This document shows, piece after piece, positions 14,716 through 40,249 of a DNA stretch of 50,340 nucleotides. Source of the stretch: Bdellovibrionales bacterium (GTDB lineage Bacteria > Bdellovibrionota > UBA1018 > CAIMNF01); NCBI GenBank assembly GCA_040380025.1, contig JBEIJY010000016.1, positions 1 through 50,340 of the forward strand, written 5' to 3'. Within the stretch, counting starts at the first letter, position 1. Every line of letters begins with the position of its first letter. A program made the position numbers and the translations under genes. The notes under the pieces were generated by a model. That model ran no database searches. It was not told the origin of the DNA and worked only from the letters and a program-made list of their open reading frames with translations.

Positions 14716-14831
14716 CTGGAGTTGATTTGTTGATTTCATTGCTTCAAATCAGTTTTTTCCGGTCGACGACTCCCCGTTGATTTGCTAATCCTTCGAAGCT
14801 CATGTTTCGCGTGATTGGGAAATACGTTGGG

Positions 14832-16568
14832 ATGGATTCTTCGGGAGTGCTTGCTCTTTTTTTGGCATTCTCTCTTTCTTCCGTGGTTTTGCCCGTGCGC
14901 GGGATTGCGCAGGACTTCCCGGCGGATGACCTGCCGTTCATCGATGATTTCGAGATTCCACCCGAAAAACCGGGTGACTTGCGCTTGCCCGATGAGGACC
15001 TGCCCGTCTCGGACGCGCAGGCTCGTGCCTTCGGGGACGCCATGCTCTCGGATCAGGAGCGCGTGTACCGCGATGTGGTCCGGCTCGAGACGCTTCTGAA
15101 AGAAAAAGTGGATCAGGCGATTCCCGAGCTGGGGCGCGCTCGCATTCGGGAAATCCAGGGTGCGCTCGCATTGCCGGAAGGGGCTGCGAAGGCCTATCGG
15201 CTGAAAAAGCTGAATGCGCAGAGTTTCATGAAACTCGAAGGCTGGGACTCCGATGCCGGTGCGATCAGGATCGGTGAGGCCTTGTTTTTGGATCGCGTGA
15301 GCGCCGGCGGAAACATGGTCGATGATCTCCGCGTGGTGGTTCCCGGCGTCGGGTTCGCGGAGCCGAAGCTTGTCGGCGGAAAGCTCTACCCGAGAATCGT
15401 CGATGAGGCCACGGGATCTTCCCACTTTCTATTGGAGAGCGAGCTCGAAATCGAATCCGCCGAGTGGCGGCGGTATGTGGCCCGGGTCAGGGCATGGAGC
15501 AACCGCGGACGCGGCCGCCCCCAGGTGTTCTGGGTCATGCACAACCCTGTGGTCGAAGAGATCGCCCCTGCCGGCGCCGCGGGTGCGGATTACAAAGTCC
15601 GGGTGAAGCTGTTCGATCGCCCGAAGGGGGCGTGGAATCGCCTGACGAACTGGTGGAAGGCCGTGTACGCCCGTCCCGACAAGCAGGCATTCGTTCAAGC
15701 CGGAATCAAAGTGGTGCTTGAGGTGGGTGCCGCAGAAGCCCTCACGTATTTGTTGGCCAAGGGGCATTTGAATCACACCTTCACCGGGCTCACGGTGGGG
15801 TACGCCACGGTGCTGGGAATTTTTGGGTCGACCTTCCGGAACGCGTTCTCTCCCGTTGATCCCACGAACTTCTGGGAGCGGAACTACAAGATGTTCATGA
15901 GGCTCCTGGTGACCTCGTACAGTTTCGGGATGTGGAACAAGGTGCTCTCCGGTGGTGCGGAAAGTGTCTCCTGGTTCACTCCGACCGGGCGTTCGATGAA
16001 TCTCGAGATCATTCAAAACTCGATCGCGAGCAATGTTCTCAGGGACGGATTCAATTCCCTGAATGACGTCCGCGAGGCGACCGGACACGCCCGCTACTCG
16101 GTCGATGTGCTCGGCGTGAAGCTGAAGGGCACCCAGCTCGAGCGTACGCTTTGGTATCAGATTCCGAACACGCTCAAGAACGCCGACCTTCTGACTCTGA
16201 ACACTGAGATGAACGCGCTCCCGCACATGCTCTTTTATACGGCCATCGTGGCAACTCCGATCGCAGTCTGGAAACATGCGCAGGCGATCCGGTATGAGCA
16301 TGCGGACGCGCTCCCTGCGGGGAGTGTTGCCCGCTTCATCCGCGAGGCTGCGGATCACGTGAAGGCTCTTGCGGCCGATCCGACGGGGCATGCCCCGGTG
16401 ATTGGATCGCTGATCGCATCCACGATCTCGAACTACGGGCGCTCGCTCGTTCAGAGTTGTACGAACCTTCTCTCGCGCAAGAATGCCGAAGAATTGAAAG
16501 AAAAGTCGCCGCCGTTCGAGGCGACTCCCGATGGCGATTGGGTCGAGATCCGCTTCCCGAAACTCTGA
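14832..16568 (+). CDS. Hypothetical exported/membrane protein
   Basis: Long ORF with N-terminal signal-like segment and several hydrophobic C-terminal segments; no family recognised. Alternative start 14802. Confidence 0.7.
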   Translation: MDSSGVLALFLAFSLSSVVLPVRGIAQDFPADDLPFIDDFEIPPEKPGDLRLPDEDLPVSDAQARAFGDAMLSDQERVYRDVVRLETLLKEKVDQAIPELGRARIREIQGALALPEGAAKAYRLKKLNAQSFMKLEGWDSDAGAIRIGEALFLDRVSAGGNMVDDLRVVVPGVGFAEPKLVGGKLYPRIVDEATGSSHFLLESELEIESAEWRRYVARVRAWSNRGRGRPQVFWVMHNPVVEEIAPAGAAGADYKVRVKLFDRPKGAWNRLTNWWKAVYARPDKQAFVQAGIKVVLEVGAAEALTYLLAKGHLNHTFTGLTVGYATVLGIFGSTFRNAFSPVDPTNFWERNYKMFMRLLVTSYSFGMWNKVLSGGAESVSWFTPTGRSMNLEIIQNSIASNVLRDGFNSLNDVREATGHARYSVDVLGVKLKGTQLERTLWYQIPNTLKNADLLTLNTEMNALPHMLFYTAIVATPIAVWKHAQAIRYEHADALPAGSVARFIREAADHVKALAADPTGHAPVIGSLIASTISNYGRSLVQSCTNLLSRKNAEELKEKSPPFEATPDGDWVEIRFPKL

Positions 16569-16628
16569 TCGTTTTTATCGCAGGCCGCCCTGAAATCCGC
16601 ATGCTCCGGCCGGATGCATCGGTTTTTT

Positions 16629-16641
16629 CAAATCATTGATT
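16629..16641 (-). promoter_or_regulatory. IHF-like binding site
   Basis: Minus strand AATCAATGATTTG matches WATCAANNNNTTR within an AT-rich intergenic region. Confidence 0.35.
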
Positions 16642-16754
16642 TTTCATGCATTTCGACGATCGTATGATCGCGATCAGGTTTCTCTCATTTTGCAATTCCA
16701 AAGAAGACGATAATCACGGAGTCCTCAGATTGATTCTGAGAAAGGAAGAACAAA

Positions 16755-17309
16755 ATGAAGCAAATCATCAGTGCAGTCCTGATCCTCTCCCTGATTCACG
16801 TTCCCGCCCTGGCGGGGCAAACCACCAATCAAACAGCCGACCAATCCGCAATGATCGCAAGCGCGTTCGACGGATTCCGTTATGCGATGACGGTCGAAGT
16901 CCGCGCGGACGATGCCGAGGGCAAGACCCGTGCGCTTCGTCGTTTCGAGGCTGAACTTGCAGATCTCGAGAAGAAGGGCGTGAAGCCCGCCCAGTTCATG
17001 GATTACTTCAAGAACTCGATTCTCGATCGCGAGACGCGGGCCGATTTTGAACGCCTCATGGCATCGGTGGATGCGGATTCGATGACGGCGGATGAGGCTT
17101 CGGCGGTCGCCATGCAGTTCATGAATTCCCGCTACCAGCAGGGCGCGAACTACAGCGGGGGCGGCAAGGGCCGTGGACATGCCGGACTTTGGATTGCAGG
17201 AATTCTCGCTGCCGGTGTGGTGACCTTCCTTGTGATCCGTCACATCCACCATCAGCGCGATATGAACCAGGATGACTGTTACGACGGTGTCACGCCGGTT
17301 GCAAACTAG
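16755..17309 (+). CDS. Hypothetical secreted protein with C-terminal TM anchor
   Basis: SD AAGGA; signal peptide ending ALA; helical body; GANYSGGG linker followed by a hydrophobic helix. Confidence 0.8.
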   Translation: MKQIISAVLILSLIHVPALAGQTTNQTADQSAMIASAFDGFRYAMTVEVRADDAEGKTRALRRFEAELADLEKKGVKPAQFMDYFKNSILDRETRADFERLMASVDADSMTADEASAVAMQFMNSRYQQGANYSGGGKGRGHAGLWIAGILAAGVVTFLVIRHIHHQRDMNQDDCYDGVTPVAN

Positions 17310-17328
17310 GATTCCGCTGATTCCACAC

Positions 17329-17366
17329 GGGTCCGGCCGCTCTCGAAGCGGTCGGGCCCTTTTTCT
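17329..17366 (+). terminator. Intrinsic terminator
   Basis: 13-bp stem GGGTCCGGCCGCT / AGCGGTCGGGCCC (two G-U pairs) followed by TTTTTCT. Confidence 0.75.
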
Positions 17367-17383
17367 GTTCCGAGGAGGAATTC

Positions 17384-18397
17384 ATGTTCCAACGCGTTCT
17401 GATCGCTTTCTTGATCTCACTCGGGTCCGGGGTGGCTTTCGCTTCGGATGCCCCGACATATCTGCAAAACGACAAGGAGGCGGTTTCGAGAGTTTACTCG
17501 CCCCGGGATCTGAAACGGGCAAAAATCCGCGTTGGATCGGTCTCAGAGGGAGCATGGGGGGTCTTCTCGGCATGGGTCACGGGGGCGATCCGGTCGGGCG
17601 ATGACCTGAAATCCCATGCAGAGCTTCTGGATTCCCTGAAACCCTTCGGGTTCCAGGATCCCGCTCTGGCGCTTGCGGACTTGGTGATTCTTTGGCGATC
17701 CGAGGACAGGCTCGATGATGTTTTTGTCCAAATTCTCCGAGCCGGCGGCGCAGGAACTGCCCGCTACCTGAAGATCCTGAAGACCGTGAAAAACCGCTAT
17801 CGTCCGAATCCGGCATCCGATTCGGATCGCGGTCCGAATGAGTTCAGTTCTCGGCGCAAATACCGGCGCAAGGGTTCGGTCACGAATCGCATGGACCTGT
17901 ACCAGCGCTTCAGCGGGTTTCAGGTGTTGATGTTAAGCGATGTGCTCCGTCATCTCTTCGAGCGAATGGACGCGATCCGTGCCCAGCTCGTGTTCGTGTA
18001 TCCGGACCGTCAGGACGCGATCGACCTCTCGCCCATGGGGCAATACTACTTCGCACGCAGGCTTCTTCTGAAGGAAATGCAGGATCTGAATCGATCCGCT
18101 CTTTTTGCAGGAGTTCCGTTCGGATTCGAGGAGGTGATCACCGCCGCACTCGAGACCGGGCTTGTGAATGGCTCGATGCTCTCTCAGGTGTTCTCGATCG
18201 ATGATCTCTGGAATCCACAGGTGACTCCGTGGCAGAAGGTCACCTCCCTCGCGCTTCGTCTCACCGGGAGTTCGAGTGTGTTCCTGCCGCCTCCCTTCAA
18301 TGTGCTGGCCTCGCTTGCAGTGCTGGTGGTGTCGGGAATCGTCGAAAACCGTCGCAGACCCATGACCCAAGGGAGGGCCGGGTATGATCCGTTTTAG
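17384..18397 (+). CDS. Hypothetical secreted/membrane-anchored protein
   Basis: SD GAGGAGG; signal peptide ending VAFA; C-terminal hydrophobic hairpin. Confidence 0.8.
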   Translation: MFQRVLIAFLISLGSGVAFASDAPTYLQNDKEAVSRVYSPRDLKRAKIRVGSVSEGAWGVFSAWVTGAIRSGDDLKSHAELLDSLKPFGFQDPALALADLVILWRSEDRLDDVFVQILRAGGAGTARYLKILKTVKNRYRPNPASDSDRGPNEFSSRRKYRRKGSVTNRMDLYQRFSGFQVLMLSDVLRHLFERMDAIRAQLVFVYPDRQDAIDLSPMGQYYFARRLLLKEMQDLNRSALFAGVPFGFEEVITAALETGLVNGSMLSQVFSIDDLWNPQVTPWQKVTSLALRLTGSSSVFLPPPFNVLASLAVLVVSGIVENRRRPMTQGRAGYDPF

Positions 18398-19604
18398 CTG
18401 GTGGTTGTTTTTGTTTCCGGGAGTTTCGTTCGCATTCGAGCCGCCCGCGCAGGACGTTTTGGTTCGGGATGGAGCCTTTCGGCCGGTCATACAAAGAGTG
18501 AAGCTTCCGGATTTGATTTCGGACGACTCATTCGACGGAAAGCACTTCAAGATCGTCGCGGGGAAATCGAACGAGGCGATCCGGTTCGGAAGCGGGGATT
18601 CCGCCTTCCTGCTTCGTGCGGCGACGGTGTATTTTCATCTCGCGCGCGCACGGGAGTTCTGGGTTCAGAAGCTGGAATCCGAATCCGTGGCGAATCTCGA
18701 AAAAATCGTCGTCCGAATCGACCTGCCGAACGGGTTCAGCGATCTTGCGCACTTTCAGAACGATACCGTGAATCCGGAGTTCAACAATGCCGTGTCGATT
18801 CCTGCGGGGCGTCCCCTGCCCGGACTTTCGATCGAGCCCTGGGGAAGGGAGATCTGGTTCCGGCCGGTGAAGCGGATCCGCACCCGTGATCTTCCCGAGA
18901 GCGGCCTCGGGGGCGCGCGGAATCCGCTCGCCGCCTATGTGAGGGCCCTTGCCTCGATGGTCGGGGAGTCCGCCGTGAGCAGACTGGTGCAAACGACGCT
19001 TCAGGCGATCTTCTTTCGTGATCTTCTGCCCGCTCCGTATCCGCAGGTGGTGCTCCGGGATGCGGGCACCATGGCGCTCGCATCGCTTTTTCTGCGGGAG
19101 ATCTGGCGGATCGACCGGCTCTTCATGAAGAAATATTATTACCTCGATACCGCGATGGTTCCCGAGATCATTCATCACGAGTTCGCGCACATCGCGCTCA
19201 GTGATCAGCTGGAGCTGACCCGTTCGACTCCGGTCATCGAAGGCCTTGCTGATTATTTCGCAACGGCGATCTCGGGCAATCCCGATCTGGCCGCACGCAT
19301 TCGGCGGTATTCGGGATCGATTCCGAAGCGGGGCCGGAACCGGGTTCCGTATTCGCCCGAGGCGGAGCGATTTGTGTATGCGAACTCCGATTTCGTGCTC
19401 TCGGTGCTCTGGCTGGTGCGGGATCGCTTTCCGGCGGTCGCGGACCGGCTCATTCTGCACGCATCCTCCATGCTCTCGACCGGTTCGTCCGACATCCGCC
19501 ATGATCTGATCCGGGCTCTTTTGGAATCGTGCCGCGAGAAGTGCGCCGATCCGAGGCGGGACCGTTTAGAGCTCATTCGCGCTTTTGAAGAGAAGGGCTT
19601 TTGA
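18384..19604 (+). CDS. Secreted gluzincin-type Zn metallopeptidase-like protein
   Basis: Signal peptide; FNNA motif; HHEFAH (HEXXH) followed ~15 aa later by EGLADYFA. Confidence 0.75.
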   Translation: MIRFSWWLFLFPGVSFAFEPPAQDVLVRDGAFRPVIQRVKLPDLISDDSFDGKHFKIVAGKSNEAIRFGSGDSAFLLRAATVYFHLARAREFWVQKLESESVANLEKIVVRIDLPNGFSDLAHFQNDTVNPEFNNAVSIPAGRPLPGLSIEPWGREIWFRPVKRIRTRDLPESGLGGARNPLAAYVRALASMVGESAVSRLVQTTLQAIFFRDLLPAPYPQVVLRDAGTMALASLFLREIWRIDRLFMKKYYYLDTAMVPEIIHHEFAHIALSDQLELTRSTPVIEGLADYFATAISGNPDLAARIRRYSGSIPKRGRNRVPYSPEAERFVYANSDFVLSVLWLVRDRFPAVADRLILHASSMLSTGSSDIRHDLIRALLESCREKCADPRRDRLELIRAFEEKGF

Positions 19605-29054: not shown

Positions 29055-30602
29055 ATGAATTCCCCTCAAAACCCCGTTCTTTCTTTCTCTGAGTTCCAAT
29101 TGAGTCCTGAGCTTTTTCGCGCGATTGAATCCTTGGGGTTTGACCGTCCGACCCCGGTTCAAGCCGAAACCTTGCCCATTCTTTTGGGTGAGCCTACCGA
29201 TTTTTTGGGTCTTGCCAGCACCGGCACCGGGAAGACCGCCGCCTTCGCCATCCCGATTCTCGAGAATCTCGACCCGAAGGAATCCGGAGTTCAGGCACTC
29301 GTGCTTTGTCCCACCCGCGAACTGGCCAAGCAGACGGCCGATCAGTTCAATCTTCTTGCACGCTTCAAAAAGACGAAGGCCCTCGCCATTTACGGCGGTG
29401 CCGGCTACGCGGGCCAGCTTCGCGCACTGAAAGAAGGGGTCAGCATTGTGATCGGGACTCCGGGCCGGATCATCGATCATTTGGAGCGCAAAACGCTGAG
29501 CCTTGATGGGCTCAGGACGGTGGTGCTCGATGAAGCCGATGAGATGATCTCGATGGGCTTCAAAGAAGAGATCGAAAAGATCCTCTCGCTCGTGAACGGC
29601 GGGGAGTCACATCAGACTTGGCTGTTTTCTGCGACCATGAGCAAGGAAATCCGTAGAATCGCCGATGGGTTCCTGCACTCGCCGAAGCAGGTTCGGATCG
29701 CATCCGAATCCGCGACCGCCGAGAAAGTCTCGCAAGAGTGCTTTTATGTGAGCGAGCAACAGCGGCCGGATGCGCTCGAGAATCTGATCGACTCGGTGGA
29801 GGGCTTTTACGGGCTCGTATTCTGCCAGACCAAGGCGCTTGTCATCGAGATCACCGAGCAGCTCAAGAAGAACGGCTACGCCGCCGATTGTTTGCATGGC
29901 GATCTCGACCAGTCGGCGCGGGAGCGCGCGATGAGGGCGTTCAAAGAAAAGTCGGTGACGATCATGGTCTGCACCGATGTCGCCTCGCGCGGAATCGACG
30001 TGAAAGACCTCACCCATGTGGTGAATTTTTCGTTGCCCCGTGAGCTCGATCTGTACATCCACCGCATCGGTCGTACCGGACGCGGCGGAAAAGCCGGGGC
30101 CGCGTGGAATCTCGTGACCCCGTCCCATCAGTGGCTCGTCGGAAGAATCGAGCGCGAGACCCGCACGAAGATGAAGCGCGGAGAGCTCCCGACCGCTGAA
30201 TCGCTGATTCGCGGCAAGGTCCGCCGGGCCCGGGACGGATTCGATTCGACCCGTTCGAATCAGGCCGAAACGGTGCAGAAAATCCAGAGTTCCCTTCAGG
30301 GTTCGGGATGGATGGAAACGATCGAGCACCTCTCCAAAGAAGAGATCGTGGCGGGGTTTCTCGCAGGCTCGATCAGGATGCCCAAACCCGTCCGCGCGGA
30401 ATCAGGATCGAAAAAACAACCATTCCATTCCAAACCGAAACGCTTCGAGAAGAGACGCGATTTCTCGGGTCCGAAAGGAAAGCCCTATTTTCGGGGAAAC
30501 ACGCGCTTTGACGGCGGTTACGAAGGATCGCCCGCGCCGTTCGCTTCTCCCGAGATGACCCGCCGGCAGAGACCCAAAGTCTCGTTCAAGATGCCGTCAT
30601 AA
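29055..30602 (+). CDS. DEAD-box RNA helicase
   Basis: Q motif, TGTGKT, PTRELA, TPGR, DEAD, SAT, SRGID and HRIGRTGR; basic C-terminal tail. Confidence 0.97.
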   Translation: MNSPQNPVLSFSEFQLSPELFRAIESLGFDRPTPVQAETLPILLGEPTDFLGLASTGTGKTAAFAIPILENLDPKESGVQALVLCPTRELAKQTADQFNLLARFKKTKALAIYGGAGYAGQLRALKEGVSIVIGTPGRIIDHLERKTLSLDGLRTVVLDEADEMISMGFKEEIEKILSLVNGGESHQTWLFSATMSKEIRRIADGFLHSPKQVRIASESATAEKVSQECFYVSEQQRPDALENLIDSVEGFYGLVFCQTKALVIEITEQLKKNGYAADCLHGDLDQSARERAMRAFKEKSVTIMVCTDVASRGIDVKDLTHVVNFSLPRELDLYIHRIGRTGRGGKAGAAWNLVTPSHQWLVGRIERETRTKMKRGELPTAESLIRGKVRRARDGFDSTRSNQAETVQKIQSSLQGSGWMETIEHLSKEEIVAGFLAGSIRMPKPVRAESGSKKQPFHSKPKRFEKRRDFSGPKGKPYFRGNTRFDGGYEGSPAPFASPEMTRRQRPKVSFKMPS

Positions 30603-31183
30603 TCGCCCCGATCCCGCACGACTTTGTGGGCGTGAATGCTCGAAGGCTCGACGAACTCGTCGTGCATGGGTTTTACTTGTTTCAAAAACTGGTTTTTCAC
30701 TCCTTCGGGCGTCCGGCCGCGCTCGGCGACATCGCGGTTCAAACGCCGGTCAAAGCGCACGGACTCGGGCGTGTCGAAAAAGATCCTCCGGTCGAACTGG
30801 CTCCAGACTTCCTCGGGATGAAAAATCAAGATTCCATCGATCAGGATGATCGGCACGGGGCGGGCACGGATGGTCTTCGCAAGCCTCGTGTGGGTGACGA
30901 AATCATACAAGGGAAGCTCCGTCTCTTCGCCCCGTTTCAGTGAGGCGAGGCATCTGGCGAGGAGCGGAAAGTCCAGGCTCTCCGGATGGTCGAAATTCAC
31001 CGATCCTCCGTCGTGATCAAACCGATGAGACTGATCGATGTAAAAGTTGTCCTGGTACAGGATGGTCGAGACCTCCGGCCCGAGCGCCTCATGGAGGGCA
31101 CGGGCGAAGTAGGTCTTCCCCGAACCCGAACCGCCCGCGATCCCGATCAAAAACGGCTTATTTGGTCTGATAGAGCCGGTCAC
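30518..31183 (-). CDS. udk: Uridine kinase
   Basis: IGIAGGSGSGKT, QDNFY, NFDHPESLD, YDFVTHTR, RRL.RD..ERGR and VKPMH..FVEPS. GTG 31183 with GGAG SD lies inside the upp 3' end (alternative ATG 31189). Confidence 0.93.
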   Translation of the reverse strand: MTGSIRPNKPFLIGIAGGSGSGKTYFARALHEALGPEVSTILYQDNFYIDQSHRFDHDGGSVNFDHPESLDFPLLARCLASLKRGEETELPLYDFVTHTRLAKTIRARPVPIILIDGILIFHPEEVWSQFDRRIFFDTPESVRFDRRLNRDVAERGRTPEGVKNQFLKQVKPMHDEFVEPSSIHAHKVVRDRGDYDGILNETLGLCRRVISGEANGAGDPS

Positions 31184-31796
31184 CTGCATCTCCAAGCCCG
31201 GGAACAAGGTATCCCGATTCGTTCACTTCTTTTTCGATTTCGACGGTCAGAATCTCGGTATCCGGATGAAAATGATGGAGCCGTTCGATGGCGGCCTCGC
31301 TCGTCAGGATCGAGAGTACCCGGATCCGGCCCACCTGGTAGCTCTTCAGGCGGTCGATCGCGGCGATCATCGTGTCGGCGGTCGCAATCAAAGGGTCGCA
31401 AAGAAGAATCTCGCGGCCCTGGATGTCTTGCGGAAGCTTGAAGTAGTACTCGACCGTGTTGTGGATGAATTTGTCGCGATAGATGCCGATGAATCCGGCG
31501 GAGGCGATCGGAATCATGTCGAGCACCGCATCGAGCATGCCGTTCCCGGCGCGAAGGATGGCCACCGCGACCGGGGCTTTCGAGATCCGCTGCACTTTTG
31601 CCGGAGAGATCGGAGTTTCGACCTTGATCTCATCCAGATGAGGCCAGTCCCGCATCGCTTCGTAGGCGAGAAGCTTCGAGATCTCCCGCACGATCTCCCG
31701 GAACTCCTGCGAGCGGGTATTCCGGTCGCGGAGGTATCCGAGCTTGTGGTTCAACAGAGGATGATGAATGACTCTTGCGTTCGGTTTTTTTCCCAT
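31158..31796 (-). CDS. upp: Uracil phosphoribosyltransferase (URC6/FUR1 orthologue)
   Basis: HPLLNHKL, ILRAG, PRPP loop DPLIAT and YLVPGLGDAGDR; SD AGGAG. Confidence 0.95.
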   Translation of the reverse strand: MGKKPNARVIHHPLLNHKLGYLRDRNTRSQEFREIVREISKLLAYEAMRDWPHLDEIKVETPISPAKVQRISKAPVAVAILRAGNGMLDAVLDMIPIASAGFIGIYRDKFIHNTVEYYFKLPQDIQGREILLCDPLIATADTMIAAIDRLKSYQVGRIRVLSILTSEAAIERLHHFHPDTEILTVEIEKEVNESGYLVPGLGDAGDRLYQTK

Positions 31797-31804
31797 GGAA
31801 TCTC

Positions 31805-32965
31805 CTAAAATACCGTTCCGTCGCTCTCGATCATCAGGGGAGGCAAAGAGGAGTTTCTCTTCACCCGGGCGATTTTCCGTCCGGCATGCCAGGTGCCGCC
31901 CTCGAGAACCTTCGCAAGCGGGAACTGCTCTCCTGTGAGTCCGAGGCGGGTTCTGATCTCTGCTCCGACCCGGTCCAGGAGTGCGACGGTCAAGGCGCGC
32001 CATTCGATGATGGCATCGTGCGAGGGGGGAAGGGGGGTTTCGGCGAGCGAAGAATCCTTGAAGCGGATCAGGCCGCTATCCAAAAAGAGGCCTCCATTCC
32101 GGTACTCGGCAAGTCCGGTCAGTTCATCGACTCCGGTGATGACGAGTCCTGCGTCCATCAGGGGCTCGAGGAGCGAATACGAGAGCCACTGGGAGAGCTT
32201 GTGAAAACCGATCGGGCCGAGCGTGGAATGGCTCCAGACATCTCCGAGGTTCACGCCCGCATGCGAGATCCTGCCGGGCCAAATCGGACCAAGCGCAAGA
32301 AGTACCGCCTTCAGCACGTCTTTCGCGGCGATGGTGCGTCCGTGCTTTTCGATGAGGTAATCGACGAGGCTTCCGGGGCGACCGTCTTTGAAGAAAACCT
32401 GATTCTCGAGCTCGGAACCCAGACGATTCAGGAGTTTCGCCCGTCCTTTCAGGCCCACCAGCGGATTGGAATCGCTCACCTGGAATCCATGGGCAAGATC
32501 GGCCTCGGCAAGCGACTTCAATCCCCGCGCCGACGACTCCACGGTCCCGGAGTAAAACAAATGAAAGCTCGCAACCCCGAGGCCCTCGGATCGCCCGTAA
32601 GACCGGGCTGTTTCTTTTTCGTGATAGCTCCATTCCGCGCCTGCACCCGCATCCAGCAAGACCGAGGGGATCACGAGATCGAACTTGATTCGCGCGAGTT
32701 CCAGGGCCGAAGCGCCCTTGTGCCGGTCCTTGAGCCAGAGAAGCCGGTCCACACCGCCTGCCTTGAAGTGTCCCCAGCGGGAATGGAAGGGAACATCGAG
32801 GGTGGGATAGTTCTCGCGGATCACTTCGATCACGAATTGGCAGGTCTCTTCGAATTTCCCGGCATCATACGACAACAGGCCGTTTCCGGCGCAGGTCTGC
32901 ACGAATACTTTTTCGGCCGACTCGCGGACGAAACCGGGCGAAAGGTAGTGATCAAGATTATTCAA
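31805..32965 (-). CDS. URC4/Urg3 (DUF1688) family protein
   Basis: PFHSRW.HF, SVLLDAGAG..WSY, RSEGL.VAS, NPLVGL.GR, FHKLSQWLSYSL, LTGLAEYRNGGL, EWRALTV and VLEGGTW.AGR. Confidence 0.92.
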   Translation of the reverse strand: MNNLDHYLSPGFVRESAEKVFVQTCAGNGLLSYDAGKFEETCQFVIEVIRENYPTLDVPFHSRWGHFKAGGVDRLLWLKDRHKGASALELARIKFDLVIPSVLLDAGAGAEWSYHEKETARSYGRSEGLGVASFHLFYSGTVESSARGLKSLAEADLAHGFQVSDSNPLVGLKGRAKLLNRLGSELENQVFFKDGRPGSLVDYLIEKHGRTIAAKDVLKAVLLALGPIWPGRISHAGVNLGDVWSHSTLGPIGFHKLSQWLSYSLLEPLMDAGLVITGVDELTGLAEYRNGGLFLDSGLIRFKDSSLAETPLPPSHDAIIEWRALTVALLDRVGAEIRTRLGLTGEQFPLAKVLEGGTWHAGRKIARVKRNSSLPPLMIESDGTVF

Positions 32966-34211
32966 TGGTTCTTCCTTTCACTTTCTTCAGTTCATCCTGA
33001 TTTTTCTTCGGCTCGTTCGAGAAGTAGCCCGCTGCTTTCTTGGCCTCGATCTCGACGGTCGCATCGGCGGGAATCAACTCTTCGGGAATCGAGATCCGGT
33101 TCACAACACGGATTCCGCTCGACACGATCGCGTCGTGCTTCATGTTGCTCATCGAGTGAAGATGGTCGATCTTCCGGATGCCGAAAAAATGGAGGCAATC
33201 CGGCATGAACTCTTGGAATCGCGCGTCCTCGACCCCGGCCACGCATTCGGTGCGTTTGAAGTAGTTGGCGGCGGTATCCCCGCCGGCCTGGCGTTTCCGC
33301 GCATTGTAAACCAGGAACTTCGTCACCTCGCCCAGGGCGCGGCCCTCTTTGCGATAGTAGGCGATGATGCCGACTCCTCCCCGTTGTGCGGTCCGGGCCG
33401 CATCTTCGATTCCGTACATCAGGTACGGGCGGCACGTGCAGATGTCCGAACCGAACACATCCGATCCGTTGCACTCGTCATGCACGCGGCAGGTGAGTTC
33501 GATTTTCGGGTCCGCGAGATCTTGCGCATTTCCGAAAATGTACACTGTGGTGGATCCGATCGGCGGAAGCCAGACCTTCAGATCGGGTCTCGTGATCAGC
33601 TCGGGACACATTCCGCCCGACTCCTGGAACAGGGTGCGCCGGAGCACGCCCTCATCCACATTCAATCTTCTTGCCATGCCGGGCAAGAACCACACCGGTT
33701 CGATGGCGACCTTGGTGACCTTGATGTCGTGGTTGTCCAGGACGACCTTCCCGTCGACGGCGAGTCTGCCATCGCGGATTGCCGAATGGATCTCCGGGAT
33801 CTGCAGGTGGGCCTGGGTCACCGAGATCGAGGGACGGATGTCATACTCGCGCTCGAAGAAAGTCTTGAAGTGAATGGCGGGATCCAGACCCCACGGGTCC
33901 AGGGTCACGATTTTGGTGGGATCGAACCACGAATCATAAGGACCGATTTGGACGGGGCTCTCGGTGTTGTGCAGATCCGGCTTGTGGGAGGGAGAAAACT
34001 TTCCGGATGCGATCGAGAGGGCGCGGTAAACCGAGTAGCTGCCCGAGTGGGTGCCGATCGCGTTGCGCGCCCTCGGATTGGTATGCGAGGCCACGACCGG
34101 CGCCCGCCGGAGCGGATCGCGGTCGCCCCAATTCAGAATCGGCGACTCCGGATACCGGAGGTTCGAGTGAGTGGCAAGAATCACATGGCTGGAACGTTCA
34201 TACCGGTGCAT
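32958..34211 (-). CDS. URC1/Urg1-like GTP cyclohydrolase II family protein
   Basis: N-terminal extension RNAIGTHSGSYS.YRAL; PVW.LPG.A.R; Zn ligands RVHDECNGSDVFGSDICTCRPYL; EGRALGEVTKFLVYNARK; EI.AK.AAGY. ATG 34211 has SD AGGAGG. Confidence 0.92.
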   Translation of the reverse strand: MHRYERSSHVILATHSNLRYPESPILNWGDRDPLRRAPVVASHTNPRARNAIGTHSGSYSVYRALSIASGKFSPSHKPDLHNTESPVQIGPYDSWFDPTKIVTLDPWGLDPAIHFKTFFEREYDIRPSISVTQAHLQIPEIHSAIRDGRLAVDGKVVLDNHDIKVTKVAIEPVWFLPGMARRLNVDEGVLRRTLFQESGGMCPELITRPDLKVWLPPIGSTTVYIFGNAQDLADPKIELTCRVHDECNGSDVFGSDICTCRPYLMYGIEDAARTAQRGGVGIIAYYRKEGRALGEVTKFLVYNARKRQAGGDTAANYFKRTECVAGVEDARFQEFMPDCLHFFGIRKIDHLHSMSNMKHDAIVSSGIRVVNRISIPEELIPADATVEIEAKKAAGYFSNEPKKNQDELKKVKGRTIE

Positions 34212-34222
34212 AAGCCCTCCTG

Positions 34223-35698
34223 TCAGGACATCCAGTTCGAGTCGGTTTGCTTTTCCCATTTCACGGTGATCTTTTTCATCTCGCTCCAAAAATCAAGCGA
34301 ATGGGCGCCGGTGATGTCGCCATGGCCGAATTTCGAGGCGTTGATTCCGCCGAACGAGAACGGTTCGCGGGGAACAGGAACACCAACATTGACTCCGATC
34401 ATTCCGGCCTTCGCTTCGCGGGTCACGCGGTCGGCGAGTGCTCCGTTCGAGGTGAACACGCTACAGGCGTTTCCGTACGAAGAGGTGGCCTGGATCTTCA
34501 GTGCCTCGCTCAGGTCTTTGCAGCGGATGATCGCAAGGACCGGGCCGAAAAGTTCCACCGTATGTGCTTCCGAACCCGGCGAGACTTCGTCCAGAATGGT
34601 GGGACCGATCCAGTTGCCGCCATCCAGCCCTTCGGGGGCCTTCGATTTTCTTCCGTCGAGAATCACGCGGGCGCCCGATTCCTCGGCGCGAGTAATCGCG
34701 CCCTTCAAGAACTCCACCTGGCTTCGGCTGATGATGGCGCCCATGTCATCCCCGAGTTTGAGCGATGCCGCGCGAGTTTTGATCTGATCGATATGCTCGT
34801 CGACCTTCCCTACGGCCAAAAGAACCGAGGCGGCCATGCAACGCTGGCCGGCACAGCCGGTGAACGAATCCGAGATGCCGATGCCGGAGAGTTCCGGATT
34901 CGCATCCGGAAGCAAAATGATGTGATTTTTGGCCCCTCCAAGGGCCAGGACGCGCTTTCCTTGTCGTGTGCCGCGTTCGTATACCGCGCGAGCGATCTTC
35001 GTCGAGCCCACGAAGGCGACGGCCTTGATCGCCGCATGATCGATCAGGGATTCGACCGTGCGCGCACCGCCCGGAAGCACCGTCAGGAGTCCTGCGGGGA
35101 GTCCGGCCTGCCGGAATGACTCCGCAATCCGGTATGACGTGAGCGGCGTCTTGTCGGAGGGCTTCCAGACGACGGCATTCCCGAGCACAAGCGCGATCGG
35201 AATCGACCAGAGTGGCACCATCGCCGGAAAGTTAAATGGCGTGATCGTCAGGACCACCCCGAGCGGCTCCCTTCGATATTCGCAGGTCACGCCCCGGGAA
35301 ACCTCGAGCTTTCCGTTCAGGTCCAGATTCTGAAGCGAGAGCGCGAATTCGAGCACTTCGAGGCCTTTCAAGAGCCCCGCTTTTCCCTCTTCGAAGGTTT
35401 TGCCCGATTCTGCTGCTTTCAGGTGAGAAATCTCTTCCAAGTCCCGAAGAAGAATGTTCCGGAACTCATACAGGATTTTTGATCGCTCTTTGATGGGCAT
35501 TTTCGCCCAATCGCGTTGTGCCACCTCGGCGGCCTCGACGGCGCGCGCGATCTGTGCCGCATCCGGTTCGGTGAGGTTGCCGATGGGCTTTCCGGAATAC
35601 GGAGAGATCACCGGAGACTCGTTGGTGGTTCCTTTGACCCATTCCCCGGCGATGAAACAATCAGCATGAACTGGTGCGGCAGGCAGAGTTGCTCTCAT
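34223..35698 (-). CDS. mmsA: CoA-acylating (methyl)malonate-semialdehyde dehydrogenase
   Basis: ITPFNFPAMVP, FVGST, GGAKNH, GCAGQRCMA, E.FGPVL and G.NVGVPVP..PFSFGG...S.FG. Confidence 0.9.
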   Translation of the reverse strand: MRATLPAAPVHADCFIAGEWVKGTTNESPVISPYSGKPIGNLTEPDAAQIARAVEAAEVAQRDWAKMPIKERSKILYEFRNILLRDLEEISHLKAAESGKTFEEGKAGLLKGLEVLEFALSLQNLDLNGKLEVSRGVTCEYRREPLGVVLTITPFNFPAMVPLWSIPIALVLGNAVVWKPSDKTPLTSYRIAESFRQAGLPAGLLTVLPGGARTVESLIDHAAIKAVAFVGSTKIARAVYERGTRQGKRVLALGGAKNHIILLPDANPELSGIGISDSFTGCAGQRCMAASVLLAVGKVDEHIDQIKTRAASLKLGDDMGAIISRSQVEFLKGAITRAEESGARVILDGRKSKAPEGLDGGNWIGPTILDEVSPGSEAHTVELFGPVLAIIRCKDLSEALKIQATSSYGNACSVFTSNGALADRVTREAKAGMIGVNVGVPVPREPFSFGGINASKFGHGDITGAHSLDFWSEMKKITVKWEKQTDSNWMS

Positions 35699-35707
35699 AG
35701 ATTCTCG

Positions 35708-35735
35708 ACTATACCTGAGAGGGGGCTTTTGGCAA
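35708..35735 (-). promoter_or_regulatory. Putative sigma70 promoter of the mmsA-URC operon
   Basis: TTGCCA-N16-TATAGT, 9 nt before the mmsA ATG. Confidence 0.55.
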
Positions 35736-35747
35736 CTTGGAGGAGTC

Positions 35748-37178
35748 TCAGCTGGAACAAGAAACCGGCAGGTGCTTCAGACGGGGCGGGGTGGGCAGGC
35801 TTTCTGCCTCGAACCGACCGTGCTCTGAAAACGGGTCCCGGAGCACCTCCGCCCATTCCGAAAGCGGTGCGGAATCCCCGCGGGAGGCGGATTCGATCAC
35901 CGATTGCGCGATGTGGTTCTTGAGCACCCATTTCGGATTCACCCGCATCCTGGAGAGGGTCCTCTCCCCGTCGCTCCGGGATTCCCGCAAAACAAGATCA
36001 TCATACCTGCGAAGCCAGGCCCGGAGTGCTTGTTGTTTTTCGGGTTCCGGATAGGCGCGCAGGAGCAAGTCCATCGAGTCCGGTTGTTTCGCCTCATAGC
36101 GCGAGAGCTCGCGAAAAAAGAAAGTATAATCGAGCGAGGTCTCTTCGAGCATCGAGAGCAACGAGGCGAGATCCTGCGCTGGGATGGGATCAAGGAGCCC
36201 GAGTTTTCTTTGATACGCCTCCAAAAGATGCCGATGAAAGAGTTCCGGGTATTGATTCAAGAGTGAGCGGAGCGTTTCGACGGGTAGGACATCCGTGAAG
36301 CATACCAGGAGCTTTTCGAGGTTCCAGTAGGCGACCTGCGGCTGCCGCGCGTACGAGTAGCGCCCTTCGCGGTCGGAATGATTGCAGACAAAGCCCGGAT
36401 CGAAATCCTCCATGAAGCCGAACGGCCCGTAATCGATGGTCAGGCCCAGAATCGAGAAGTTGTCGGTGTTCATCACGCCATGGCAGAACCCCGAGGCCTG
36501 CCAGAGTGCGATCATCCTCGCAGTGCGATCGATCACCTCGTGAAGCATCGCTTCGATCGAATGCCCCTGATAAAAGAACTCCCGCACATACTCGATGAGC
36601 GCGTGGAGCTCATTCTTTTTTTGAAAGTGGAACGCCATCTCGAAATGCCCGAAGCGGATGTTGCTCGGGAACACCCGGGCCACCAGCGCCTCGGGTTCGA
36701 GTTCTTCGCGTTCCACGAGTCCTTCGCCCGAGAGGATCGCAAGCGAGCGCGTGGTCGGGATCCCGAGCGCGTGCATGGCTTCCGCGCAGAGGTACTCCCG
36801 AATCGAGGACCGAAGCACGGCCTTTCCGTCTCCCCGGCGCGAAAAAGGAGTGGGCCCCGACCCTTTGACCTGAATCTCCTGTCGTCCCAGGACCGGATGC
36901 AAAATCTCTCCGAGCGAGAGGGTGCGTCCGTCGCCGAGCTGTCCGGCCCACACGCCGAACTGATGGCCCGCATAGCGGGTCGAAATCCGTTGATCGCCGG
37001 GAAGGCGGGATTCGCCGTTCAGCCACGACACCAAAGATTCATCGCTCAGGGTCCCGAGTCCGAGTTCCGTGCGAAGCGGACCTGTATGAAGAAGCTTCGG
37101 GGCACGGAGGGGCAGGGGGGCCACCGGCTCAAAGAAAAACGAGGGCAGGGATACGAAGGAATTCTGGAAGGGAATCAT
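35748..37178 (-). CDS. selO: Protein adenylyltransferase SelO/YdiU
   Basis: YAGHQFG.WAGQLGDGR, KGSGPTPFSR.GDG.AVLRSSIREYL..EAM, GFCHGVMNTDN, IDYGPFGF and C-terminal SCSS. ATGA-coupled to the GT2 gene. Confidence 0.95.
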   Translation of the reverse strand: MIPFQNSFVSLPSFFFEPVAPLPLRAPKLLHTGPLRTELGLGTLSDESLVSWLNGESRLPGDQRISTRYAGHQFGVWAGQLGDGRTLSLGEILHPVLGRQEIQVKGSGPTPFSRRGDGKAVLRSSIREYLCAEAMHALGIPTTRSLAILSGEGLVEREELEPEALVARVFPSNIRFGHFEMAFHFQKKNELHALIEYVREFFYQGHSIEAMLHEVIDRTARMIALWQASGFCHGVMNTDNFSILGLTIDYGPFGFMEDFDPGFVCNHSDREGRYSYARQPQVAYWNLEKLLVCFTDVLPVETLRSLLNQYPELFHRHLLEAYQRKLGLLDPIPAQDLASLLSMLEETSLDYTFFFRELSRYEAKQPDSMDLLLRAYPEPEKQQALRAWLRRYDDLVLRESRSDGERTLSRMRVNPKWVLKNHIAQSVIESASRGDSAPLSEWAEVLRDPFSEHGRFEAESLPTPPRLKHLPVSCSS

Positions 37179-37936
37179 CGGCGCAGAAGAAGAATGAGTT
37201 TCACGTACTTGATGAAATACGCATGGGTCGAAAGCACGCTCCAGTACCATCCTTCGCGGCCGTTCAAGACATTGAGGTGAAGAAAATAGAACTGCAGAAA
37301 CTTCACCGGCGTGAGGAGGACATGAAGGGATGCTCGCGCGAGACTTGCGGTTTCCCGGAGCGATTGCGCTCCGAGAGTGGTGTAGCGGTTCATCTTCTCG
37401 AGATACAGTTCCAGATCCGGATAACTGAAGTGATGGATGTGGTTCCGGGTGGTGAGAACGCATGGATCCCGGAGGATGACTTTTTCATGCACCGATGCGC
37501 GATCGAAGTCCCCCGCGGACTTCCGGAATATGCGGAGCACCCGAACCCTGGACTCGCGCCCGAAGCGGAATGGCCTTCCCAAAAAAACCAGACGCGAACG
37601 GATCCAGATGCCGTTCCGTTCGGGGATCCGGATTTCCTCCAAAATCTCGCGGGCGAGTTCCGGGGTCACCTCTTCGTCGGCATCGAGGCTGAAAACCCAG
37701 TCATGGGTCGCACTCCGCACTGCAAACGACTTCTGCTCGCCAAAGCGCTCAAAGGGGTGGTCGATCACCGTGCATCCGAAAGACTGTGCGATCTCACAGG
37801 TACGATCGGTGCTTCCGCTATCGACCACGAGGATCTCATCGCAGAACGAAAGCGATCGGAGGGCGCGCGCGAGGTTTTTCTCTTCATTCTTGGTGATGAG
37901 CACCGCAGAGATCGGCGTGGGGTTTCGGGTCGGCAT
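37175..37936 (-). CDS. GT2 glycosyltransferase (WaaE/KdtX-like)
   Basis: IT.NEE, VVDSGSTDRT, WVFSLDADE, VHE, KMNRYT and KY.KL. Alternative TTG start at 37972. Confidence 0.9.
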   Translation of the reverse strand: MPTRNPTPISAVLITKNEEKNLARALRSLSFCDEILVVDSGSTDRTCEIAQSFGCTVIDHPFERFGEQKSFAVRSATHDWVFSLDADEEVTPELAREILEEIRIPERNGIWIRSRLVFLGRPFRFGRESRVRVLRIFRKSAGDFDRASVHEKVILRDPCVLTTRNHIHHFSYPDLELYLEKMNRYTTLGAQSLRETASLARASLHVLLTPVKFLQFYFLHLNVLNGREGWYWSVLSTHAYFIKYVKLILLLRR

Positions 37937-37943
37937 GGGCCGC

Positions 37944-37972
37944 AGGATATCGGGGGATCGTGCTTTTCTCAA
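37944..37972 (-). promoter_or_regulatory. Putative internal leaderless sigma70 promoter for GT2-selO
   Basis: TTGAGA-N17-TATCCT, 7 nt before ATG 37936. Confidence 0.5.
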
Positions 37973-39030
37973 GTCGCTTCCATCTGCCGGAGAATCTCGT
38001 CCGAAGTTCCTCGGGCGACGATTCGGTGTCGCTCCCGATCGAGTGATTTTTCGTACAAGGGGTCATAGTACCGGACAAGGAGCTCCCGGATCCAACCCTC
38101 GTGGACCCCCGCCTGCCGGAAGTCCGCGCTCTCGAAAGCCTGACGCATTTCGGCCTGAATCCTGGCCGAAACCAATCCCCCGAGCTTTTTTTCGATGCGA
38201 GCGAGACCCGAAAGAAAAAAAACGAGGGCCTCCTGGGAAGGGGCTTGCTCCGCTCCCGGGCTCGGCCCCAATCGCGGCAGGACGTAGTCATGGGCGATTC
38301 TGCGTACCCGTTCCTCGAGTGGAACTTCCAAAACCAGCATCGGAGATGATTTCATTTTTCGATACAGATTCGCCGGCACCACCCGCGCTCCCACCATGAC
38401 GGATTCGTCTTCGACCAGGATCGATCTGTTTTCGGGGAGTTTGAGCGCGGACGCCATGATTGCGTTCTCGAAAGTCGCCTGCGAGGGTTGGGGCCCGAGC
38501 GCCCCGAAACTCGACCCGCGATGATTCGCATGCAGTTCGATGTCAAGGCAGGGAATTCGATTTTGATGGAGAAACCGCGTCTTTCCGGCTCCGGTTTTAC
38601 CGCCGAGCACGAGGACGTTCCGGGTCCCAAGAATCTCATCGAATCGGATCATCAGGTGATTTCGAAGTCGTTTATATCCTCCCGCGATGCGCTCAATCGG
38701 CCACCCGGCCTCGCGGATCCAGGAACTTGCGATCTGCGAGCGGAGTCCTCCGCGGAGGCAGTATAGTCGCGCATCGGGATGATCTTGTACGAATGCGACC
38801 CACGCGGCCACGCGATTCTGGCGCACCTCACCCGAAACAAGCTCATGGCCAAGCCGGATCGCCGCCTCCTGCCCCTCGTTCCGGTAGCAAAGACCGACTT
38901 GGTGTCGTTCTTCGTTGTTCAGAATCGGAAGATTTCGCGAGGAAGGGAGGCTCCCCTCTGAAAACTCCACCGGAGCTCGCACGTCGATCAGGGGCAGGTC
39001 GTCTCGAAAAATCCGGTCAAAATCAAGCAT
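37969..39030 (-). CDS. selU: tRNA 2-selenouridine synthase
   Basis: Rhodanese domain IDVRAPVEF..G, YCLRGGLRS, GGYK; P-loop GKTGAGKT; ANHRGSSFG, QPSQATFEN, EDES and YYDPLY. Confidence 0.95.
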   Translation of the reverse strand: MLDFDRIFRDDLPLIDVRAPVEFSEGSLPSSRNLPILNNEERHQVGLCYRNEGQEAAIRLGHELVSGEVRQNRVAAWVAFVQDHPDARLYCLRGGLRSQIASSWIREAGWPIERIAGGYKRLRNHLMIRFDEILGTRNVLVLGGKTGAGKTRFLHQNRIPCLDIELHANHRGSSFGALGPQPSQATFENAIMASALKLPENRSILVEDESVMVGARVVPANLYRKMKSSPMLVLEVPLEERVRRIAHDYVLPRLGPSPGAEQAPSQEALVFFLSGLARIEKKLGGLVSARIQAEMRQAFESADFRQAGVHEGWIRELLVRYYDPLYEKSLDRERHRIVARGTSDEILRQMEAT

Positions 39031-40090
39031 GGACGAGGATTCGCGGGGTGGAGGGGCGTTCGCCTGCTGTTTCTTCTACTGTGCCAATGCGTGAGGTATC
39101 GGGAAACCTCGCACGGAGTTTTGCGGTCACGGCGTCGGCGGACTCGGCGGCGACCGAGAGCAAAAGACCGCCGCTCGTTTGCGGATCAAACAGGATCAAA
39201 TCCTCGCCCGAAGAAGACAGGGCCGGATCGAGCAGGCATTCTTTCTCGACATAGAGGCGATTGGTCCGATGAGCCTTGGTGAGGTTTTCGGCGCGCAGGG
39301 ACTCGCGCGCGAGGCGGAAGATTGGAATCGCAGGGGCTTGGATCCGGATCCGGACTTCGGATGCGCGGGCCATTTGAAGCGTGTGCCCGAGGAGTCCGAA
39401 CCCCGTGATGTCGGTTGCGGCATGGATCGAATCCCGTTCCGCTTCGCTCAAAAGGCCCGAGAGATCATTCAGCCTCGTCATCGATGAAATGGCTTCCTGC
39501 AAGTCGCTCTCGTCATAATCGCCGTTTTTCAGGCCGGCGCAAAGAGTTCCGGTTCCCAACGGTTTCGTGAGAATCAAATGATCGCCTGCTCGGGCGGTCT
39601 GATTGCTCCAAAACTTGCGCGGATGAACCGTACCGGTCACGGAGAGGCCGAACTTCAGCGTATCGTCATCGATGGAATGGCCGCCCACCATGGAACAATC
39701 GGCTTCGATCAGTTTGGATCGCGCGCCCTCGAGCACTTCGCGAAGAACTGCGGGGTCGAGAGTCGAAAGGGGAAAAGCCAGGATTCCCATGGCCGTCTTC
39801 GGAACGCCGCCCATCGCGTAAACATCGCTGAGAGCATTGGTGGCCGCGATTTGTCCGAACAGAAAAGGAGTATCGACGATCGGGGTGAAGAAATCGAGCG
39901 TCTGGACCAGGGCGAGATCGGGCGTGATTTGATAAATCCCCGCGTCGTCCAAGTGTCTTCCGTCAATCAATACGGCAGGGTCCTTTGATCGGAAATCCAC
40001 AGTCGAGAGGATTTCACGCAAAAGATCGGCGCTGATCTTTGCCGCGCATCCTCCTTTTTGTACGGTCTGGGTCAGGCGAACGGTTGTCAT
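39023..40090 (-). CDS. selD: Selenophosphate synthetase (Cys form)
   Basis: GGCAAKI, DDAG, QTLDFFTPIVD.P, NALSDVYAMGG, GGHS, TDITGFGLLGH and DPQTSGGLL. Confidence 0.97.
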   Translation of the reverse strand: MTTVRLTQTVQKGGCAAKISADLLREILSTVDFRSKDPAVLIDGRHLDDAGIYQITPDLALVQTLDFFTPIVDTPFLFGQIAATNALSDVYAMGGVPKTAMGILAFPLSTLDPAVLREVLEGARSKLIEADCSMVGGHSIDDDTLKFGLSVTGTVHPRKFWSNQTARAGDHLILTKPLGTGTLCAGLKNGDYDESDLQEAISSMTRLNDLSGLLSEAERDSIHAATDITGFGLLGHTLQMARASEVRIRIQAPAIPIFRLARESLRAENLTKAHRTNRLYVEKECLLDPALSSSGEDLILFDPQTSGGLLLSVAAESADAVTAKLRARFPDTSRIGTVEETAGERPSTPRILVHA

Positions 40091-40249
40091 GGGCACCTCG
40101 ATTCGAAGGCCCTGATGCTAACACGGTTCAGGGGGGCACGGGAGTCCTGAAGTCGGGCCATTTTGTCCGATGCCATCGGGGCCGGATCCGCCTCTCGCGC
40201 TTCTTTTGTCGAGCGCACGATTTTTGCTTTCTCTAATCCGGAGGGGTGA

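Follow-up and report, generated by a model that had tools for sequence, protein, structure and literature searches.

A conserved five-gene operon for probable URC-type pyrimidine catabolism in Bdellovibrionota and a predicted phosphoribosylurea N-glycosidase role for Urc4 (DUF1688)

What does a member of the Bdellovibrionota gain from a compact set of genes for taking apart uracil and uridine? The question is raised by a 50,340-nt stretch of DNA from a Bdellovibrionales bacterium (GenBank assembly GCA_040380025.1, contig JBEIJY010000016.1, positions 1 to 50,340 of the forward strand; hereafter the window), in which open reading frame (ORF) calls reveal five tightly packed minus-strand genes, mmsA-urcA(URC1)-urc4-upp-udk. 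A preliminary description had proposed an operon for URC-type pyrimidine catabolism, the pathway in which uracil, once made into a nucleotide, is degraded to yield urea and a C3 unit (PMC7530994, PMC3869809, PMC2174524). This assignment stands: homologues of URC1, URC4 and uracil phosphoribosyltransferase (UPRTase) are clustered and agree with their family profiles. The operon is real and conserved in Bdellovibrionota, and we consider it reasonably probable that it serves pyrimidine catabolism, is expressed conditionally, and retains the carbon of its substrates while giving up their nitrogen. Its elements are:

34223..35698, minus strand: mmsA-like coenzyme A (CoA)-acylating malonate-semialdehyde dehydrogenase (aldehyde dehydrogenase (ALDH) family ALDH6; Lys111/Arg444 subclade), 491 aa, Aldedh domain
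32958..34211, minus strand: urcA/URC1, UTP cyclohydrolase, 417 aa, GTP_CH_N and GTP_cyclohydro2 domains
31805..32965, minus strand: urc4/DUF1688, Qng1-fold, predicted 5'-phosphoribosylurea N-glycosidase, 386 aa, TTG start, DUF1688 domain
31158..31796, minus strand: upp/URC6, uracil phosphoribosyltransferase, 212 aa, UPRTase domain
30518..31189 (ATG start; alternatively TTG at 31150), minus strand: udk, uridine kinase paralogue, uridine kinase family
35708..35735, minus strand: sigma70-like candidate promoter TTGCCA-16-TATAGT, 9 nt 5' of the mmsA ATG, without Shine-Dalgarno motif

The arrangement of five co-oriented genes with gaps of at most 11 bp or overlaps is borne out by the ORF coordinates: mmsA and urcA are 11 bp apart, urcA and urc4 overlap by 8 bp, urc4 and upp are separated by 8 bp, and upp and udk either overlap by 32 bp (ATG 31189) or leave a gap of 7 bp (TTG 31150). 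The gene identities proposed earlier, including DUF1688 and the URC1 N-terminal domain, agree with hidden Markov model profiles from Pfam and NCBIfam. UrcA scored 697 bits against NF005536 (NCBIfam; cut-off 403), Urc4 433 bits against DUF1688 (Pfam) and Udk 206 bits against NF004018 (cut-off 180), while Upp lay above the cut-off for both NF001097 and TIGR01091.

The gene order recurs well beyond this genome. Among the 80 top-ranking urcA loci in GTDB, whose titles are nearly all Bdellovibrionota with a few given just as ‘bacterium’, mmsA lay directly upstream in 68/73, udk downstream in 55/58 and all five genes in order in 51/54 (uniform criteria, evaluable loci). A second set of 40 further, lower-ranking loci (61–73% identity, no duplicates of the first set) gave 30/40, 37/39 and 27/39, respectively, which answers the concern that mmsA adjacency might be unique to this genome. 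In a survey of 401 Bdellovibrionota genomes, where kin are not independent and the counts are to be read as a pattern rather than a statistic, urcA was detected in 164 genomes and a dehydrogenase of the clade in 152, with both present in 143, urcA only in 21, the dehydrogenase only in 9 and neither in 228. Thirteen of the 21 urcA-only genomes belong to one family (f16), and in one of the nine dehydrogenase-only genomes urcA is cut at a contig end. In other phyla, 5 of 16 plasmid matches were opened; in this small sample, four carried urcA-urc4-upp and none of the five mmsA or udk. A reductase substituting for mmsA was considered and rejected, as the ORF lists of 15 mmsA-less loci, inspected by eye with two ORFs scanned, held no common replacement.

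Some further loci deserve mention on their own account. Two mmsA-less loci (L026:11122-11754, L030:4989-5627) carry, after upp and instead of udk, a DTW-domain gene, which we take to belong to the tRNA-uridine aminocarboxypropyltransferase family. Genus g1 contains two urcA types (G001, G011 and G016 vs. G002, G010 and G013), which share approximately 61% and 85% identity with the gene of the window, a hint that the entire operon was replaced or transferred. On a Rhizobium plasmid (L107), a divergent urcA-like gene (49%) stands next to genes for a deaminase and a Rieske protein, with no urc4 or upp within 9 kb, and perhaps serves another cyclohydrolase function. In two urcA-less genomes (L237, L238), a URC-clade dehydrogenase gene lies directly behind a PhnSTU2-like ABC transporter that scores below cut-offs.

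The ring-opening step had been placed on the route via uridine monophosphate (UMP) and called poorly resolved, an account that is out of date. UrcA shares 62–63% identity, with both domains matched, with PDB 7EEV and 7EJ3, which are titled UTP cyclohydrolase and presumably derive from Rhodococcus wratislaviensis (ACS Catal 2021); the top four Foldseek matches of UrcA carry the same title, with template-modelling (TM) scores of 0.90–0.94. Because of this identity to a solved enzyme that hydrolyses uridine triphosphate (UTP), the ring-opening substrate is assigned by homology as UTP, a step already known from the homologue, and the route would run through UTP. Residues Cys247, Cys258, Cys260, Tyr302 and Arg331 align with Cys54, Cys65, Cys67, Tyr105 and Arg128 of E. 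coli RibA and are invariant in 47/47 sequences. At the GTP cyclohydrolase II site of RibA, the Cys triad provides the metal ligands, and the Tyr and Arg have roles in the catalytic mechanism. Retention of the RibA Arg, judged by that mechanism, points to a monophosphate as product, with pyrophosphate (PPi) set free; the ureido-ribotide leaving UrcA would, by analogy, most likely be 5'-phosphoribosylurea, formed with loss of PPi. That URC1 might act as an ordinary GTP cyclohydrolase II, as the preliminary description had considered, is not borne out: UrcA falls below the RibA cut-offs (42 bits for TIGR00505, cut-off 206; 53 bits for NF001591, cut-off 148), and the source genome encodes a separate RibA (C13). 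A two-step hydrolysis of UTP by UrcA in uracil breakdown has been described (PMC9499338).

For Urc4, PDB sequence searches with the protein or its profile returned nothing meaningful, and solely a fold search gave a match. An AlphaFold model built on an alignment of 64 of the 120 listed homologues (predicted local distance difference test score (pLDDT) 92) resembled Qng1/DUF2419, the queuine salvage enzyme, with a Foldseek E of 1.5e-9 and, by VIA-align, a Z of 28.4 and a root-mean-square deviation of 2.9 over 312 aligned residues (range 5–386 on 5–323); the C-termini were in register, and the next family reached only Z 11. Comparing the Urc4 profile with that of 37 of 39 Q_salvage homologues yielded a probability score of 93.4 and an E of 2.5e-7. 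The likeness to Qng1/QNG1 (PDB 7UK3/7U91; queuosine-5'-monophosphate N-glycosidase) extends over the whole length of a two-lobe helix-hairpin-helix (HhH) fold with C-terminal tail and includes the HhH Lys, an acid-Tyr-basic motif, a Trp and a terminal aromatic residue. In S. thermophilus numbering, Lys256, Glu287, Tyr288, Arg289 and Trp359 of Urc4 correspond to Lys199, Asp231, Tyr232, Lys233 and Trp302 of Qng1; these five and the terminal Phe386 are invariant in 113/113 loci, the correspondence of Phe386 to the terminal aromatic residue of Qng1 being drawn from the aligned ranges and the invariance. In Qng1, the residues position the ribose, carry out the attack on C1' and hold the 5'-phosphate, with the carboxylate of the terminal Tyr323 in the site (PMC9881137). 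The two proteins differ in that they share 16–17% identity, the catalytic Asp231 is conservatively replaced by Glu287, and the base pocket is not the same. Because of the Asp-to-Glu exchange and the lack of a PF10343 match for the window protein (31/64 relatives match weakly, best E 0.0022), Urc4 is classified by sequence as a sister family of Qng1 rather than a member.

Yeast URC4 has been described to break ribosylurea down to urea (PMC7530994, PMC8709784). Urc4 of the window is predicted to act on 5'-phosphoribosylurea, and judging by the modelled fold and the aligned residues we are fairly confident that the DUF1688/URC4 family would be a Glu-dependent nucleotide N-glycosidase, one that draws on the carboxylate of its own C-terminus to split phosphoribosylurea, releasing urea and ribose-5-phosphate. 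Glu287 would then either act as nucleophile or stabilise the cation; the ribose would be held by Lys256 and the Phe386 carboxylate, and the phosphate by Tyr288/Arg289. Our literature search found no paper joining DUF1688 to Qng1. A true Qng1-family gene occurs in 1/301 Bdellovibrionota genomes, between secA and gap (L148:1207-2304, G083).

The C3 unit leads to the first gene of the operon, which had been suggested to encode a CoA-acylating malonate-semialdehyde dehydrogenase that replaces the reductase; motifs, co-occurrence with urcA and the context of a sister clade uphold this. The ten best solved relatives of the enzyme are all methylmalonate-semialdehyde dehydrogenases (MMSDH). N156 and C287 are present and the catalytic Glu is replaced by L253, the residue pattern used to define ALDH6-type enzymes (PMC12041015), and the Arg adjoining the catalytic Cys (R283 in 1T90) is R286 in 97/97 sequences. 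Of the six ALDHs of the source genome, no other belongs to ALDH6. Malonate semialdehyde, with CoA, is a substrate of enzymes in this family (PMC4907197). Sister enzymes of 48–52% identity share K111 and R444, and 6/7 sister loci, two of them one near-identical pair, carry dihydropyrimidinase, PreA and/or NCS1 genes. In reductive pyrimidine catabolism, malonate semialdehyde is coupled to acetyl-CoA, PydE being the ALDH6 step of the extended pathway. Since the reductive clusters of the sister enzymes end in malonate semialdehyde, the two contexts indicate one substrate. Sister status is drawn from identity and shared residues more than from the tree of these dehydrogenases, because the latter was a quick version with Shimodaira-Hasegawa-like approximate likelihood-ratio test (SH-aLRT) support only and one distant canonical MMSDH. 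Taking the CoA-acylating ALDH6 signature, the co-occurrence with urcA and the sister enzymes in reductive pyrimidine clusters together, we regard malonate semialdehyde as a well-supported candidate substrate. The operon contains no URC8-type reductase (orthologues of the short-chain dehydrogenase/reductase type elsewhere in the genome were not searched for), and a beta-ureidopropionase of the hydantoinase/carbamoylase type was not found in the source genome.

As to nitrogen, the earlier remark that the window holds no urea-degrading gene was confirmed by a scan of its 41 further ORFs. In the source genome, which is 98% complete, searches for urease alpha, urea carboxylase and allophanate hydrolase found none; an amidase match entertained as allophanate hydrolase was identified as GatA. 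Across the 401 genomes, urease alpha gave one full-length match, in a urcA-less genome, and five marginal partial matches, two of them just over the cut-off (24–25 bits) and in urcA genomes. Urea carboxylase was found in 0/160 of the 163 other urcA genomes. With neither urease nor urea carboxylase at hand, uracil nitrogen is probably discarded.

From these parts a pathway can be proposed. Upp (uracil plus phosphoribosyl pyrophosphate) and Udk (uridine plus ATP) would supply UMP. The operon upp is the only copy found in the source genome; for udk, there is also a housekeeping copy elsewhere, beside rnj, to which the operon gene is paralogous, which agrees with the earlier view of udk as a second entry to UMP. 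Since the route runs through UTP, PyrH and Ndk are needed; both are encoded elsewhere in the genome and would raise UMP to UTP. UrcA would open the ring of UTP by a two-step hydrolysis, which has been shown with the 62%-identical homologue, and release malonate semialdehyde and the ureido-ribotide. Urc4 would cleave the N-glycosidic bond of the latter in the manner of Qng1, as fold and residues suggest, to give ribose-5-phosphate and urea, and the dehydrogenase would convert malonate semialdehyde to acetyl-CoA, CO2 and NADH, with urea being excreted. Counted from UMP, 2 ATP would be spent vs. a return of ribose-5-phosphate, acetyl-CoA and NADH. A second stand-alone pyrH above the family cut-off (G000:C4:10947-11711; L149:4948-5715) was examined as a dedicated UMP kinase and rejected: it is present in 9/241 genomes, six of them without DUF1688, and does not track urcA. 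The nine genomes with relatives of this second pyrH all belong to the same order as the source organism.

When would such a route be used? B. bacteriovorus HD100 possesses a counterpart, Bd1534–Bd1530, with the same order, annotations, lengths (1476, 1248, 1218, 633 and 624 bp) and 8-bp overlap, matched from tables rather than by alignment. On microarrays, Bd1530–34 shift together; they were unchanged at 30 min (fold 0.85–1.0, not significant) and all 2.3- to 5-fold lower in host-independent growth vs. attack phase (PMC2797640), which is weak evidence, since 37% of genes dropped between these two states. In S. pombe, uracil induces urg1-3 (PMC2174524, PMC3869809). By RNA-seq all five HD100 genes were scored silent, with reads per kilobase per million (RPKM) of 0–14 in attack phase and 0.7–1.6 at 3 h in prey, where each gene of Bd1530–34 was represented by one read during intraperiplasmic growth (PMC3627812). 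This silence in both states suggests that expression of the operon is conditional; the trigger is probably starvation or uracil excess, that is, an intracellular build-up of uracil or uridine from turnover of the cell's own RNA in starvation or from a flood of digested RNA, and not routine growth. The silence also belongs to a group of observations that weigh against the catabolic reading. The operon holds no regulator or transporter gene. The dehydrogenase scores 423 bits against its best family, TIGR01722, under the cut-off of 448.5 (next family 255), a cut-off reached by 3/5 orthologues and 5/5 sister enzymes tested. Its second carboxylate-binding Arg (R107 in 1T90) is Lys111 in 97/97 sequences, as it is in the sister enzymes that pass TIGR01722. 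Finally, family f16 has urcA in 13/14 genomes and the dehydrogenase clade in 0/14, and its loci (e.g. L115, L118, L122, L123, L126) keep urcA-urc4-upp(-udk) without the dehydrogenase, so that the URC route can exist without this enzyme.

Silence under ordinary conditions, the dehydrogenase-free f16 loci, the ATP cost of the UTP route and the lack of a transporter in the operon, together with the finding of no NCS2, NCS1 or CNT transporters in the source genome (ABC systems were not searched), would likewise suit an overflow valve of the same chemistry, in which UrcA trims surplus UTP or uracil, the dehydrogenase mainly detoxifies a reactive aldehyde and energy is incidental. We consider this unlikely in view of upp and the dedicated udk paralogue, which draw bases and nucleosides in, beyond draining UTP, and of the dehydrogenase being the first gene in most loci. 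The preliminary description had seen RNA-derived pyrimidines as a carbon and energy source that would suit a predator. Taken as a routine route for prey RNA during intraperiplasmic growth, this view could draw on the presence of urcA in 164/401 genomes, on an arrangement of five genes that is typical for the phylum and missing from 5/5 plasmid loci of other phyla, and on unrecovered nitrogen fitting a protein-rich diet. Such routine use is not supported so far and strikes us as improbable: the HD100 genes are not induced at 30 min and yield one read each at 3 h, and 237/401 genomes have no urcA match. Could the genes instead be a mixed neighbourhood, with upp/udk for salvage and mmsA for valine (methylmalonate semialdehyde)? 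The source genome has de novo pyrB as well as salvage, and the metabolic model iCH457 files Bd1534 under valine degradation (PMC7529429); against this stand the substrate of Bd1534 appearing in that single reaction of the model, a source genome in which 3-hydroxyisobutyrate dehydrogenase (mmsB) was not found beyond weak partial PF03446 matches, and a dehydrogenase that co-occurs with and adjoins urcA and has its sister clade in pyrimidine clusters, all of which makes this explanation very improbable. Nitrogen acquisition from uracil, the known URC role in L. kluyveri (PMC7530994), we regard as hardly credible for a nearly complete genome that lacks the three urea-degrading enzymes searched for, in a phylum sample that is alike save for the two marginal partial urease-domain matches in urcA genomes. 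The preferred reading remains conditional catabolism with recovery of carbon and loss of nitrogen. That Bdellovibrionota rely on this route to consume the uridine of their own RNA during starvation between prey is possible, although we would not lean towards it, and the fuller picture, in which Urc4 would be a Glu-dependent phosphoribosylurea glycosidase and Bdellovibrionota would burn own-RNA uridine via an acetyl-CoA-yielding, nitrogen-discarding route when starving between prey, is offered tentatively and is more doubtful as a whole.

The candidate sigma70 promoter fared unevenly. A promoter scan of the window saw two sites vs. 1.3 expected, which by itself is chance level, but the TTGCCA/TATAGT hexamers, their spacing, the 9-nt distance and the missing Shine-Dalgarno motif recur in 3/3 closest relatives inspected (L023, L024, L025). 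This conservation suggests a real promoter with a putative near-leaderless transcript in this lineage only; such promoter-to-ATG spacing was seen in 3/82 loci, and 59/82 loci carry a Shine-Dalgarno-like motif instead. A shared upstream regulator site was rejected, as no 8-mer occurred in more than 10/93 loci. The guanine-plus-cytosine level is flat across the whole window. Directly upstream on the same strand lies a selD-mnmH(selU)-GT2-selO run (window 35748-40096), which places tRNA 2-selenouridine synthesis beside a SelO adenylyltransferase; a larger operon including these genes was rejected, and they are regarded as chance neighbours because selO is found in 0/125 related loci. At the other end, the 3' end of udk, whose product is about 10 residues longer than in most relatives, shares 85 bp with the convergent gene for a CshA-like DEAD-box helicase (window 30518-30602). 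Further away, three long ORFs (588, 337 and 406 aa; window 14802-19604) have no Pfam match.

If true, the Urc4 prediction would close the last unassigned URC step in bacteria and fungi; it is testable at the residue level, and a C-terminal tag should abolish activity, as in Qng1. For the metabolic model of B. bacteriovorus, the analysis indicates that a pathway is missing and that Bd1534 is mis-filed, and it gives a testable answer on how predators handle surplus pyrimidines.

The operon is not a new kind of system, since both the UrcA reaction and the URC core cluster, the latter from fungi as well as bacteria, are already known; a literature search did not find its five-gene, nitrogen-discarding form in Bdellovibrionota or Bdellovibrio, with the primary URC/UrcA papers, which may mention the dehydrogenase, outside that search. 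With B. bacteriovorus HD100 Bd1534–Bd1530, the window has the gene order in common, and in the supplements of iCH457 Bd1532 and Bd1533 are absent and no such pathway appears, the model not treating the genes as one (PMC7529429). The resemblance to the URC genes of Lachancea kluyveri (URC1, URC4, URC6, URC3,5, URC8) and to S. pombe urg1-urg2-urg3 lies in the clustered homologues of URC1, URC4 and UPRTase. The genome of the window operon, unlike these systems, is without urea amidolyase or urease, and the operon includes udk but no regulator or permease. In Lachancea kluyveri, URC8 carries out the reduction to 3-hydroxypropionate, instead of which the window operon has the CoA-acylating dehydrogenase. 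UrcA retains both domains, the metal ligands and the catalytic positions and shows no sequence-level difference of note from 7EEV and 7EJ3; it differs in gene context, as the association with mmsA and udk was seen in 0/5 of the proteobacterial and actinobacterial plasmid loci. Compared with ALDH6 of the IolA type (1T90), the dehydrogenase keeps the Cys and Asn, the absent catalytic Glu and the Arg beside the Cys, but has Lys at the Arg107 position and an additional invariant Arg444, and, whereas the ALDH6 of the reductive pathway is fed by beta-alanine, the window enzyme would be fed by the opening of the UTP ring.

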